From Octopus sinensis (Eukaryota), in contig NC_043007.1 in NCBI RefSeq assembly GCF_006345805.1, positions 5,828,001 to 5,892,000 on the forward strand: a stretch of DNA of 64,000 bases. Reading direction: 5' to 3'. The notes under the pieces were generated by a model. That model saw only the letters and a program-made list of their open reading frames with translations. It did not search any database and was not told the DNA's origin. Position 1 is the first letter of the stretch. Each line of letters starts with the position of its first letter. Below are positions 36,191 through 63,806 of this stretch, piece after piece. The translations under genes were made by a program, and so were the position numbers.

Positions 36191-36385
36191 ATGTTCTTCT
36201 GGAATGTTTTCCGAGGGAAGATCCTACTGCTTTCTTGCATGGTCTTTCACAGTTTGGCATACAATGCGAATGAGAACTTATGCGCCGGGACACAGCTGAT
36301 TCTTCTTCCTAAGAATATATACAAAAAATGTAATGTCGACCTTAGTGTAGCTGATGTAAAGAAACCGCCAACATTGAATGTTCCG
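36191..36385 (+). CDS. PEBP4-like paralog C, coding exon 1 (MFFWNVFRGKILLLSCMVFHSLAYNANENLCAGTQLILLPKNIYKKCNVDLSVADVKKPPTLNVP)
   Basis: ATG to CCG|gtaggt, 195 nt, signal-peptide-like N-terminus. Splices in frame to exons at 41190, 43244 and 45413, giving 645 nt / 214 aa. Confidence 0.9.
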
Positions 36386-38715
36386 GTAGGTTATCTATGA
36401 ATAATACTAGCATTTTGTCTGATTTAGGCCATCAATTAGTGAAAAGACGATGAGTTGATACCATTGTCCCCTTGCTTGATTGCTTCTTTATCTTATCGAT
36501 CTGGAAAGGCTGAAACGCAAAGTTGACCCTGTGTGGGGGATTTGAATGTAAATAGTTGGAAAGCATGTTTCTCGATGCTTTAACAATTCTGCTAGTTCGG
36601 CGCCAGCAGTTTTAAGATGAGGTGATAAGTAGATGCCACAAATTCCACTACTTGACAGCTGCTTTCTTTCATTTCGACACCCAAGGGAATGAAAGGCTAA
36701 GTTAACCCTGGCGGGGTGAAGAGCCGAAAAAGATTGCACGAAACATATTTTTACCTTTGCTCTAAAAATTCTGCCAATGTGTAACAATTTCTGTTATTGG
36801 TGACAAGGGCCCAAAATGTTGTTAACAATGAAAATACAATTAACAAAAACAATAGGAGAATTATTTCGGGTAAAAAGAGCAGAAATCTACAAAAATGACG
36901 AGTGCAAAATGTCAACACGATAAGGTGGCAAGTAAGAAGTAATTCCTCTTGATTAACTCGGAGTATCTTCCACGAAACTCTGGGTGACGCGCATCAAATG
37001 TTAAGTGCGCACTCGTAGTTTGTTGTCTTTTGTTTAGAGTCGTCAAGTCAAAATGGGTTCATTTCGCCTCATCAGACTCGCTGTGTTTATATTTTGTAAA
37101 GACAACGGAGGAGAGTGATTTCCTCCTCCCTTCAACTGTGTACTTTAAGCATTTGATGTGGGCATTGTTCGAGAACATCCTTAACCAAATCCTTTTAACC
37201 GCGTCCAACACAACTTTCTTTACCATAGCCATTTAGTAGAAGTAGGTTAGTCGCCTTTTCTTGTTAATAGAAAGCAGTGGGCCGATCTTACCTTATAGAC
37301 TGGGATGACGGCCGAATCTGTTTTACATGTGATGGCATACATTCGATAGAAACTCACAAATCAGGAAAAAGAGGAATACAGAATAAATAAGTGCTTGATG
37401 TTTCTAGGACACGCCCGACATTGCCAAGACTCCAGAATCGGTAGAGCTTGTCCGGAGCAGACGGTGCTTCTTAACCCCTGTTGTACCGAAAGAGACCAAG
37501 GTCCATTTGGTCGCTTTGAGCAGCAGAGTAAAATCGAAAGTGCATACACTACAATCTGGTCTCGTATTTCCTGAAATATGACCCTGTAGTCAGGTGGTTC
37601 TGCATAACCGCGTGATGCAGACATTAACTATTTCCGCAAGTGTAGTGTTTTCACTTCCTGCTCTGGGTCACCAGCTGTATTTCGTCAAACTCTTCTACAC
37701 TGAAACAGCTTGAGGTGCAACCAGCACCTGGAATTCAGTTGTCATCATCGTACGATTTTGTTGTGAAATGGACTTAAGTTCTACTTCAGTCATAGAACTA
37801 AACACGACCTTGAAGGTGTTACGCTGGTCACTAACCTTCATTATTTGTCGTCTTTAATTAAACGACATCATTGCAAAATGCCGAGACATTTCATGTGGTT
37901 ATGCTCACTGCTCTAGGTTGCTTCTTTCTGTAAATGAAAAGCCACTGTCCAATGGTGTCTTCCTCTCGTCCAGGATGGCACGGCTGATCATACTTCTTAA
38001 AAACGTTTGTTGATTTGAACTGGAGTGGGATACTGCAACTTCTCATCTTCTTAAGACAGATGAAATACCACCAGGCATTTCGCCCGGCGTGCTAACGTTT
38101 CTGCAAGCTGGCCGTGCTAAGCAGTCAAGATATTGTTAGTTATCACAATCACCATTTGATGTCTTTGGCAAAGACATTTAGCTTTTATGAAATGATTCAA
38201 TACGTGTAGCAAACGAATAGGTATTTGAGGGTAAAAACAAATCTCTGCTTTGACACTGGTGACACTGTAACATTGGCGAACGCTTTCATAGTTCACAATG
38301 ATAAATTCAGTTCTTTCGGTGGGTGCAAGAAGGGCGGGCGCAAAAGAGTGACTTACTCTGATGTTGCACGGCGATCGGCGTTTCACTGGTGTCCCTAAAA
38401 ACTATTATGGGTTTCAAGACCCGAACATAATCGTAACAAGTACAGATAAGTATATCAAGTGACGGGTACATTTCCATGCTAGCATGGGTTATTTATTTAC
38501 CCACCTTTCTCTCTGTATCCCCCCTCTTTCTATATATATATTTTAAAAAATATATACATGTGTTGCTGTGTGTGTCAGTATATGTATATATGTATCCGTA
38601 TATATATATGTATATATATATATATATGTATATATATATATATATATATATATATATATATATATATATATATATATATATATATATATATATATATATA
38701 TATATATATTAGACA

Positions 38716-38995
38716 GGTGGAGGCGCAATGGCCTAGTGGTTTGGGCAGTGGACTCGCGGAAGATCGCGGTTTCGTTTCCCAGACCGGGCGGTATGAGTGT
38801 TTATTGAGCGAAAACAACTAAAGCTCTGCGAAGCTCCGGCGGGGAATGGTGGCGACCCCTGCTGTACTCTTTCGCCACAACTTTCTCAAACTCTTTCTTC
38901 TGTTGGTCTGCTCGCTTAGCCAGTGGGGTGGCGTTATTTGAAGACTAAGACAATGCGAAGCGCATTGTGACCAGCGATGATCACGGTGATATTAG
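38716..38995 (+). mobile_element. tRNA-derived SINE (paralogous copy at about 49573-49855; a further family member on the - strand at about 50940-51145)
   Basis: gcaatggcc(t/c)agtggtt A-box-like and ggtttcgattcc B-box-like motifs, with a shared body. Confidence 0.7.
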
Positions 38996-39959
38996 ACAGA
39001 ATGGGATAACCAACCCAAGACTGTGAGATGTTTTCAGGACATTTATTATGAAATAGTCTTACTGCTGTTTCTGGAATATTATGGATATCCCTTCATCAGA
39101 AAAAATATCAGAGTTCGAGTTGCTGTAGAAAAATAGGGAATATGGAGAGAAAAAAGGGAATGAAGATATGATGATCTCTGAAGATGATATGTTAAGGTCT
39201 AAACGGCTGATATCAATCATGGAATGCATATTCAAATTCAAGTTGCCTACTTTAGTGAACGTTGCCTTCTTTATCACACCACCACCACAACGATTAATGC
39301 GGTCTTTGCGAAATAGGTTGTAGCCAGCTATGCTGAACCCCGCTTCACACAGTTAGGCATGTGTCCATATTTCTTTGATTGTAATGAAATCGGGGTCGAT
39401 ACCTTTGGCGTAAGATGTACTTTGTTGCACAAGTTATGAGCATTCAAGGACAACAGTTTGTACCTTGATTTCAGTTTACTACGATGTGAAGAGAATGGCG
39501 GGTCGTTCCTATTTTTTCCCGACAGTCTCGACAGTCTTTTCATTGCCAACTGTTGTGGTCACTGTGTGTTCACACCAGCTCGTATCTCTTCCCTATGTTT
39601 CACCATCCTTAATATACAACCCATGGTCGTGTACGCTGAAGCTTTCATGTTGTGCTAAGTTGATATTTAAGGAAGCCACATCACGTAGCTTTGGATGTAC
39701 ATCAGGTGGTAGGCCAGAGCCTATTCTAAAGGTAATCCTATTTTCACGCCTAACTTTATCAGAAGCTAAAAGGTATGAAAATGTCTCAGAAGAGTTTGAA
39801 AAAGACAGCCTGATTAGTCTGAGTTTTGGACCTGATCGACCAAGGCGGAGAGCACCCTTCGGGGAACACAGCCTAGGTCTTTGAATGAGCTGGTAGTAAC
39901 TGCCAGAAGGTCAGCTATATTCTCTCGTACCCCAATGACAATTACTTCATTGCTGACCG

Positions 39960-62547: not shown

Positions 62548-63571
62548 TTGAGATCTGGGGACTGTGGTGGCCAGATAAGAATTTCAACTTCACTAGAATG
62601 TTCATTGTGTCATTCAGTAAGAACTTTAGCTGTGTGAATTGATGCATTATCGTCCTGTCCTGAAAGTTTGCGTTCGCATCTAGAAACTTCTCTGAAGCCA
62701 TAGAATGAATTTGATCAGATAAAATGCTTAAATAGTCTTGAGTATTAATTCTGCCTTGAAGGGAAACCATTAGGCCGGCAGATTTCCAAGATAGAGCCCC
62801 GTCCCAGGTCATCAGAAATCTTCCTCCATATTTAACTGTTCGAAGATGGCAGTTTGGGTCAAATGATTCTTTTGGCTGTCTCCACATGTCTACCCGGTTG
62901 GTGGGCGGAAATAAGGTAAAGGATGATTCGTCGGAGAAAGTAACATTTTTCCACTGTTCTAGGGATCAATTCTGTAGGTTTTTACTCCACTCTAAACACT
63001 TTGCAACATTTGTTTTTGAAAGTAGTGGTTTATTGGTTGTAGACCTGGCGTGAAATCCGGCTTTCTGCTGCTCCTGGCGAGCAGTTTTTGTAGAAACAGG
63101 GTCCTCGAGGCGGTCATTAAGCTCGGCAGTAATTTTGAGAGCTGTGCTTTTGTGAGCTTTTCTGACAATTCGCGGAACATTAAGAAAGTCTGAAAGTTTT
63201 GGTTTTCTCCTGGTGTTTTGTTACGGCGAGGATGTTTTTTTCCTCTTTCTCAAAGGCTGTCATTACTTACGAGGCAGTAATTCTTGAGACATCAAACATT
63301 TCGGCTGCTTTCGTTATGCTAGCGCCTGCCATGTAGGCACCAACAATTTGACCTCTTTGAAAGTCCGATACATCTGTCATTTTAATGAATTTCAATTACC
63401 TTTCTCTGATGAAATCTGAAAAGAAACAGCAATTTTAGCAAAAAATATTAAGCAACACTAATAATAAATAAAAAAAACATAAATATAAAGAAGACTTTGA
63501 CGGTTTTACAGATATTTCAAAGTTATGATGCAATGATGCTAGGTTTTTCCACTATTTTGTCCTACACCTGT
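62548..63571 (-). mobile_element. Tc1-like transposon remnant (paralog D intron 2)
   Basis: Near-identical to 42097-43088. Confidence 0.85.
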
Positions 63572-63754
63572 ATATGTACAAGCCTAGATAAGTAACTAAA
63601 AGCATGAGAATACATGGATAAAAGGTACGAATCTACTAATACATACATAGAAACATAAATGCATGCATAAAGCATACATACATACATACATACATACATA
63701 TAATACATAAATATATTTCATAATATATATATACATATATTATACTAATTTCAG

Positions 63755-63806
63755 CGCTCAGAGCTGCAACAAAGTGGCGTAACACCAGCATCACGCGACT
63801 CAGTAC
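63755..63806 (+). CDS. PEBP4-like paralog D, exon 3 (RSELQQSGVTPASRDSV+C); last exon expected beyond the window
   Basis: aatttcag acceptor and gtaagta donor, 52 nt (one extra codon, frame preserved). Confidence 0.87.

Follow-up and report, generated by a model that had tools for sequence, protein, structure and literature searches.

What kind of gene family has neighboring copies that differ almost only by amino acid replacements? The question is raised by a stretch of 64,000 nucleotides of the Octopus sinensis genome (assembly GCF_006345805.1, contig NC_043007.1, positions 5,828,001 to 5,892,000; the whole stretch is called the window here). A first-pass annotation of this stretch had singled out two paralogs, C and D, with a shared signal peptide and divergent mature domains, and had likened them to toxin, immune, and gamete-recognition families under positive selection. 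By scanning the window and 200 kb of flanking DNA, we found nine tandem copies, P1 to P9, of a gene related to the phosphatidylethanolamine-binding proteins (PEBPs) at C11:5.826-6.035 Mb, with seven copies on the forward strand and two on the reverse strand (A, B, C, and D of the annotation are P1, P2, P3, and P4); a further 80 kb of flanking DNA held no additional array copy. The array protein consists of a signal peptide, a PEBP4-like domain, and a tail resembling a glycosylphosphatidylinositol (GPI) attachment signal, and it is a PEBP by descent and fold. Our data make it highly probable that these genes encode surface proteins and that the diversifying selection on them is real. All nine copies have four exons (195, 108, 49 to 52, and 272 to 296 bases) with GT-AG borders and phases 0, 0, and 1. 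Six copies are intact, and three are broken: P1 by a single-base frameshift toward the end of exon 4, P2 by an internal stop, and P6 by a frameshift and a stop, both in exon 1.

A codon-by-codon recount of C against D agrees with the numbers in the annotation. The first 24 codons of exon 1 are identical and are followed by 15 replacement codons and no silent ones; exon 2 holds four replacement codons and one silent codon, and exon 3 holds eight replacement codons, no silent codon, and one extra codon in D (52 versus 49 nucleotides). The ratio of about 27:1 that was read from these counts, however, overstates the strength of the pair. A further 15 replacement and 4 silent codons lie in exon 4, which in D falls beyond the window; the whole gene then stands at 42:5, and the ratio is not the proper test because counting by codon hides the silent steps within multi-base codon changes. 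Pathway counting over exons 1 to 3 yields 32 nonsynonymous steps on 271 sites and 4.0 synonymous steps on 83 sites, for which the neutral site ratio is 3.2:1. The accompanying claim that the shared introns are more alike than the mature exons is correct overall and incorrect for exon 2. Differences amount to 51 mismatches in 1573 aligned bases (3.2%) between intron stretches 36900-38480 and 47740-49320 and to 275 of 7436 positions (3.7%) over all alignable C/D introns, compared with 54 of 462 mature-domain coding bases (11.7%); exon 2, with 5 of 108 bases different, is no more divergent than the introns. None of 52 fourfold degenerate sites differs between C and D, while 15 of 154 second codon positions do.

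The array as a whole supports positive selection on the mature domain. The ratio of nonsynonymous to synonymous substitution rates (dN/dS) over residues 25-178 exceeds 1 in 36 of 36 pairs of copies (range, 1.06 to 2.42; the pairs are not independent), and with nine copies the M1a/M2a, M7/M8, and M8a/M8 comparisons all reject neutrality. The signal therefore held as more paralogs were added; its loss was one of two outcomes that the annotation had named as fatal to its proposal. Breaks in P1, P2, and P6 were coded as missing data. Model M0 gives a dN/dS of 1.49. Twice the log-likelihood difference (2dL) between M1a and M2a is 97.3 for nine copies on one tree and 57.5 for the six intact copies; it is 78.1 and 46.8 with per-exon trees, 57.5 with eight partitions, and 47.2 when double and triple substitutions are allowed (26.4 for the intact copies). 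The corresponding values are 81.1 and 64.7 for M7/M8 and 78.1 and 45.9 for M8a/M8 (35 iterations). Removal of 36 residue positions near indels leaves a 2dL of 68.0 (multi-hit model, 48.8; intact copies, 38.2). The site models place about one third of codons in a class with a dN/dS of 3 to 4.6; the multi-hit fit to P3-P7 differs, with 0.64 of sites at 2.85. Simulated data without positive selection (40 runs, with a new tree for every 25 codons and analyzed on a single tree) reached a 2dL of at most 15.0 and an M0 estimate of at most 0.88. By region, dN/dS is 0.41 in the signal peptide and 1.58 to 2.38 in the mature exons.

The other outcome named as fatal was that exon divergence reflects conversion from older, distant copies, with synonymous divergence to match. 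A tree-free comparison of the five closest copies argues otherwise. Fifty of 148 second codon positions are variable, as are 2 of 37 fourfold third positions and 457 of 6243 intron sites (7.3%), so that second positions are about five times as variable as introns. Second positions differ from both fourfold sites (p = 3.6e-4) and introns (p = 6e-20), and fourfold sites vary no more than introns do (p = 1.0). Because fourfold sites match the introns while second positions exceed both, the exons are not simply older than the introns.

Gene conversion does shuffle blocks between copies of the array. The data of exons 1, 2, and 4 reject one another's trees (approximately unbiased test, p at most 2e-5), except for exon 2 against the exon 3 and exon 4 trees. 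Exon 1 of P2 matches that of P8 at all but 4 of 195 bases, yet their exon 2 sequences differ at 37 of 108; for P6 and P7, the number of differences is 2 of 282 in exon 4 and 20 of 51 in exon 3. Codons 36-61 of copy C have 0 of 78 bases different from copy B and 14 of 78 different from D, which amounts to 14 of the 21 differences between C and D in exon 1. Because this block is converted (C is the same as B), part of the C/D difference in exon 1 predates the split of C and D; the shuffled block itself consists of replacements. Intron divergence is 6.1% within 50 bases of exons and 2.3 to 2.7% beyond 400 bases (pairs not independent), which fits conversion of intron interiors.

What, then, are these proteins? 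All nine copies have a hydrophobic stretch at residues 8-22 (12-residue Kyte-Doolittle mean, 2.2), which we read as the signal peptide, and cleavage in copy C is predicted near Ala23. The Pfam PBP profile (PF01161) scores below its cut-off on copy A exons (E values of 0.005 and 0.0011), and the exons of C, submitted singly, gave no match. Relatives P0004, P0006, P0007, and P0008 score above the cut-off of 24 bits (array ortholog P0004, 27.3; Argonauta P0006, 38.9), and P0003 falls below it at 20. The fold was judged on AlphaFold models of two relatives of C and D, P0010 and P0003. The model of the tailless P0010 (predicted local distance difference test [pLDDT], 72.9) matches FT and PEBP1 with E values of about 1e-6. 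The model of array member P0003 (pLDDT, 80.5; exons 2-4 only) has a best E value of 3.8e-3, with a probability of 1.00 and a template modeling score of 0.56, and its top rows are nearly all PEBP-fold proteins; both models match FT, CEN, and PEBP1 best.

A profile of six exon 4 sequences had seven matches among 1.84 billion representatives (five octopod PEBP-like proteins, one mite PEBP, and one unrelated repeat protein), and another search brought in PEBP4 from O. bimaculoides, a PEBP from a bivalve, and PEBP4 from the coelacanth. P0005, a repeat protein without PBP, was dropped. A homolog search with C exon 4 among longer proteins retained 0 of 72 candidates, and ESM Atlas gave no usable match with exon 4; with P0006 it returned PEBP clusters under 0.9, a lead only. 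In a tree that left out the chimeric models P0002 and P0004, the octopod genes form one clade (98/96), and Latimeria PEBP4 lies outside it on a long branch with mite domains. Argonauta P0006, which has a similar tail and P9 as its best match, joins the tree on a long branch as the sister of the array (97/95). Elsewhere in the genome, a tailless secreted PEBP4-like gene on C8 has the four-exon plan and intron phases of the array and is likely closest to the ancestral state. Two single genes, on C9 and C8, have a hydrophobic end and a changed HRY motif (YRI and RRI, respectively); exon 3 of both was not located.

In the tail of the array protein, small residues are followed by a polar spacer and then by a run of 17 hydrophobic residues that reaches the stop, which leaves no cytoplasmic tail. 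STASDL..QR is invariant in the six intact copies, and the putative omega residue lies about 26 residues from the end. By the general rule for such signals (small omega residues, a polar spacer, and a terminal hydrophobic stretch), this tail would be a GPI signal. The comparison with toxin, immune, and gamete-recognition families stands as a description of the evolutionary pattern, but a PEBP4-like domain with a tail that suggests tethering looks unlike a toxin.

The selected sites avoid the core of this domain. Empirical Bayes posteriors are at least 0.9 at 28 sites (an indel pair in P2 and P8 affects sites 29-34), which include 1 of 40 central-strand positions and 26 of 114 positions elsewhere (p = 0.003). 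Residues 139-157 hold 5 of the 27 selected mature-domain sites (140, 142, 144, 146, and 150), and sites 125 and 128 belong to the loop at the rim of the pocket. From the topology of PEBPs, sites 73, 74, 101, 140-146, and 163-167 are expected at the pole that faces away from the pocket, and sites 112-114 would join 125 and 128 at the rim. The core strands, Cys47, and Gly127 are conserved. The anion-binding pocket of PEBPs is formed by the residue set DPD, HW, GPxPP, and HRY. These motifs are kept in copy A and in the tailless C8 gene and read FHPE, HW, KPPSP, and NHF in C and FHPE, HW, KPPSP, and SHF in D, neither of which has an intact pocket. The equivalents of FT Asp71, His118, and Arg119 are H/N/H in C and H/S/H in D. 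Across the nine copies, position 81 is D/G/H/H/D/V/H/D/N and position 129 is H/H/N/S/N/N/N/H/H. The pocket residues are not among the selected sites (posteriors of 0.40 to 0.47 at position 81, 0.04 to 0.07 at 129, and 0.15 to 0.18 at 130). C and D are PEBPs by descent and fold and are not canonical pocket-bearing members.

Several points weigh against reading the array as GPI-anchored proteins diversified by selection. The C/D pair alone is suggestive, borderline, and not decisive: over the whole gene dN is 0.104 and dS is 0.057 (Fisher p = 0.048), and the maximum likelihood dN/dS is 2.21 (p = 0.040), or 2.06 for the mature domain (p = 0.073). The pathway dS of this pair is roughly double the intron rate (8.5 of 111; p = 0.04 to 0.07). 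Silent third-position change is higher in residue-changing codons, both in P3-P7 (5 of 81 versus 16 of 439) and over all nine copies (80 of 521 versus 91 of 1197), and multi-base changes or older blocks therefore contribute. Multi-hit rates are nonzero and lower the test statistic; for P3-P7 alone, 2dL falls from 27.4 to 13.4 under the multi-hit model. The codon models were run in our own GY94/F3x4 code with empirical Bayes posteriors, not in PAML. The dN/dS of the tail is 1.00, not below 1, at one third to half the substitution rate. GPI anchoring is predicted from a residue pattern, and the tail, modeled as a low-confidence helix (pLDDT of about 50), may instead be a tail anchor. Finally, the evolutionary pattern is also typical of gamete-recognition proteins.

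What could drive such selection? We favor, with somewhat less than even confidence, a defense-type arms race in which a surface PEBP array would bind the changing proteins of microbes, parasites, or other non-self sources, possibly their proteases. PEBPs act as serine protease inhibitors (PMC13079683). The loops are likely to be changing fast to track a fast-changing binding partner. The comparisons above document several steps of this history. A hydrophobic C-terminal tail, which Argonauta already has, was added to a secreted PEBP4-like lineage, and the gene multiplied in tandem. Conversion swaps blocks among copies, and introns, signal peptide, and tail remain alike. Replacements accumulate in loops away from the central strands, the counterpart of the FT/TFL1 specificity loop among them, with silent sites tracking the introns. 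At the sequence level, the youngest clade (C, D, P6, and P7) has altered anion-pocket residues, and the loops would therefore bind another protein instead of the head group of a phospholipid. Beyond this, we infer the GPI anchor, the tissue, and a non-self partner that is antagonistic. Three of the nine copies are broken, as in birth-and-death families. A more sweeping proposal, which we find doubtful as a whole, is that octopods turned a conserved cytosolic PEBP fold into a lipid-anchored surface recognition repertoire in which the pocket was given up, an arms race drives the loops, and conversion of exon blocks recombines these loops into new specificities, with the result serving as a hitherto unrecognized immune or gamete barcode.

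The same selection could also come from a reproductive partner, an alternative that is unlikely but deserves serious weight. The proteins would then coat sperm, the spermatophore, or the female tract and respond to sperm competition or sexual conflict. A PEBP1 sperm-surface receptor is known, octopuses are polyandrous and store sperm, and all of our selection results agree equally well with this alternative. The nearest named vertebrate relative, PEBP4, has a signal peptide and is present in sperm plasma (PMC9369291), and mammalian PEBPs are abundant in spermatids (PMC13079683). Against it, O. vulgaris orthologs of the older copies are nearly identical in protein (P0002-P0004, 0 to 2 residues per exon set), whereas species-recognition proteins should differ between species. 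Many paralogs, moreover, diversify within one genome with conversion and pseudogenes, which is more usual in defense families. The gene id is not listed in one gonad-transcriptome supplement, which is uninformative given that the annotation is chimeric.

It is considerably less probable that the copies are surface-tethered binders of small ligands, chemosensory or detoxifying, with the pocket rewired copy by copy. Drosophila antennal A5 offers a chemosensory parallel among PEBPs. In the array, pocket residues 81 and 129 vary stepwise between copies, and two selected sites sit on the pocket rim; in Bemisia tabaci, 202 PEBPs are tied to detoxification (PMC10510153). The pocket residues have low selection posteriors, however, most selected sites lie in other loops, and a dN/dS near 4 at one third of sites exceeds what ligand tuning usually needs. 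The remaining alternative, that relaxed or dying duplicates, conversion, multi-base mutations, and alignment error together mimic a dN/dS above 1, draws on the broken copies, the conflicting exon trees, the multi-hit rates, and the raised dS of C and D, but it is very improbable and largely refuted by the agreement of fourfold sites with introns, the fivefold excess at second positions, the persistence of the tests under per-exon trees, multi-hit models, and removal of broken copies and indel-adjacent codons, the simulations with recombination, and the conserved core.

How new is such an array? Conotoxin-type and gamete-recognition families combine a conserved signal peptide and introns with a hypervariable mature region and conversion between copies, and the evolutionary pattern of the array is of this already known kind. 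Their fold is unrelated, however, and the array protein, with about 190 mature residues, is predicted to be membrane tethered and shows no toxin-like features. PEBP1 and the yeast carboxypeptidase Y inhibitor (PDB 1wpx), which inhibit serine proteases or carboxypeptidase, have the same fold and offer a precedent for protein binding outside the lipid pocket; they are cytosolic, single copy, and conserved. PEBP4, the tailless C8 gene, and P0010 of O. bimaculoides share the signal peptide, a Cys pair before the domain, and the PEBP fold; the array differs in its hydrophobic GPI-like tail, its nine tandem copies, its positive selection, and the loss of DPD, GPxPP, and HRY in C and D. Vertebrate PEBP4 is secreted (PMC9369291).

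FT and TFL1 are among the best structural matches, and the equivalent of their external loop carries the 5 of 27 selected mature-domain sites described above. In these proteins, the opposite functions of the paralogs are set by external loop 128-145, and pocket Asp71 of FT is dispensable (PMC5421193). Unlike the array proteins, they are intracellular transcription co-regulators without a signal peptide or tail, and the available part of that article reports no arms-race rates for them (PMC5421193). Bemisia tabaci shows a comparable lineage-specific multiplication of PEBPs, but it is an insect with a far larger set used in detoxification, and neither a GPI tail nor positive selection is mentioned in the part available (PMC10510153). 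The term PEBP is absent from the text of a venom preprint (10.64898/2026.02.02.703354), and the available texts or supplements of PMC11202624, PMC12607849, PMC9699675, PMC10142993, PMC10700109, and PMC8079154 hold no relevant mention. A search of the literature on octopus or cephalopod PEBPs and on GPI-anchored PEBPs, with most subscription journals outside its coverage, found no description of the array. Nor did the literature searched contain any other PEBP array that is tethered to the surface, has a degenerate pocket, and is under strong diversifying selection. PEBPs are otherwise known as conserved, mostly intracellular proteins. The non-self and gamete recognition molecules of cephalopods are poorly known, and the array supplies concrete candidates in which 28 selected sites have been mapped and for which the tailless, pocket-intact C8 relative serves as a control.

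Public annotation masks the array behind chimeric models. The only named model over the locus, P0001 (XP_036362932.1), joins exon 1 of copy A to exons 2-3 of copy B; P0002 (A and B) and P0004 (P9 and P8) are also chimeras of adjoining copies, and no public protein records for C or D were found. An assembly artifact, with haplotypes placed in tandem, was rejected because the five close copies carry their own insertions and intron lengths and several are transcribed. The frameshift in copy A may be an assembly error; if it is real, copy A would be a secreted form.

Table 1. Features of the PEBP array and related genes (window positions, except where a contig is given)
Feature	Position	Strand	Remarks
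Copy C TATA box	35984-35989	+	About 205 bases upstream of the ATG
Copy C exon 1	36191-36385	+	65 codons; signal peptide; conserved Cys31 and Cys47; first 24 codons the same as in D
Copy C converted block	36296-36373	+	Exon 1 codons 36-61
Copy C intron 1 start	36386-38505	+	Colinear with D 47234-49338; about 3-4% divergent; neutral yardstick
Copy C exon 2	41190-41297	+	PEBP strands; DPD motif changed to FHPE, HW motif retained
Copy C exon 3	43244-43292	+	49 nt; exon changing fastest
Copy C exon 4	45413-45705	+	PP loop, NHF in place of HRY, external loop, final strand, GPI-like tail, and stop codon
Copy C residues 139-157	45475-45531	+	Counterpart of FT/TFL1 external loop (128-145)
Copy C predicted GPI signal	45619-45702	+	ASTAS small residues, polar spacer, 17 hydrophobic residues reaching the stop; pattern only
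Copy D exon 1	47039-47233	+	
Copy D exon 2	56490-56597	+	
Copy D exon 3	63755-63806	+	52 nt, longer than C exon 3 by one codon
Copy D exon 4	G000:C11:5897997-5898289		Outside the window
Copy A (P1) exons 2-4	1426-1533, 3490-3538, 8085-8361	+	DPD and HRY kept; exon 1 precedes the window
Copy A frameshift	within 8264-8277	+	Exon 4; one base; tail lost, PEBP domain still whole
Copy B (P2) exons	12018-12212, 19273-19380, 26037-26085, 29697-29992	+	Internal stop 29738-29740
Tailless secreted PEBP4-like gene (L033-L034)	G000:C8:41411078-41425782	-	178 aa; intact DPD, HW, GPSPP, HRY
Single PEBP4-like gene (L036)	G000:C9:about 89335779-89344239	-	Hydrophobic C-terminal end
Single PEBP4-like gene (L038-L039)	G000:C8:about 41500088-41511550	+	Hydrophobic C-terminal end

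Copy C is transcribed and spliced. Transcript contigs, which were aligned to C and come from runs with coded labels, start near 36015, downstream of the TATA box. The splice between exons 1 and 2 (at 36385) is present in contigs of runs X2, X4, and X6, in pieces identical to C, and that between exons 3 and 4 (at 45413) is present in runs X1 and X4. The splice-supporting contigs come from two studies; contigs of P1, P9, and P6/P7 type are present too, and run X4 contains exon 1 of copy A type. Contig depths (in X4 and X6, thousands on exons and tens on introns) cannot rank expression and were not used, and run X9, with no coverage at C exon 1, was not counted as evidence on expression. Exon 2 starts in the contig consensus that are unlike every reference copy were not called alleles, because they are majority mixtures of two or three paralog contigs. 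The same TATA motif lies upstream of B (11865), D (46832), and P5, P6, P7, and P9 (the last four outside the window). Such a promoter fits a somatic, strongly expressed gene slightly better than a spermatocyte gene, which is weak evidence. The bases 50 to 200 upstream of the ATG (35990-36190 and the equivalents in P4-P7) are 0.6 to 0.8% divergent among P3-P7, below the introns. A 54-base leader piece (36121-36174) is absent from P1/P9-type transcripts and from P2, P8, and P9.

The introns hold several repeats. Intron 2 of copy B carries a Penelope-like remnant at 19941-21283 (RVT_1, E value of 2.6e-4; GIY-YIG, E value of 2.2e-5), and related pieces lie at 39959-40438 in C and 55209-55697 in D. 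A Tc1/mariner remnant at 56842-58337 in D intron 2, with inverted ends of about 157 bases and a DDE_3 match at 57652-58098, is absent from C. The same intron contains a 382-residue open frame at 60292-61440 on the reverse strand that belongs to a long interspersed element remnant (weak zf-RVT match). A short repeat resembling a short interspersed element at 38053-38114, in intron 1, draws very many contigs in all runs aligned. Elsewhere in the window, a 318-residue open frame at 15071-16027 has no Pfam match, and a low-complexity tandem repeat of about 1.6 kb at 31025-32648 has long open frames in all six frames.

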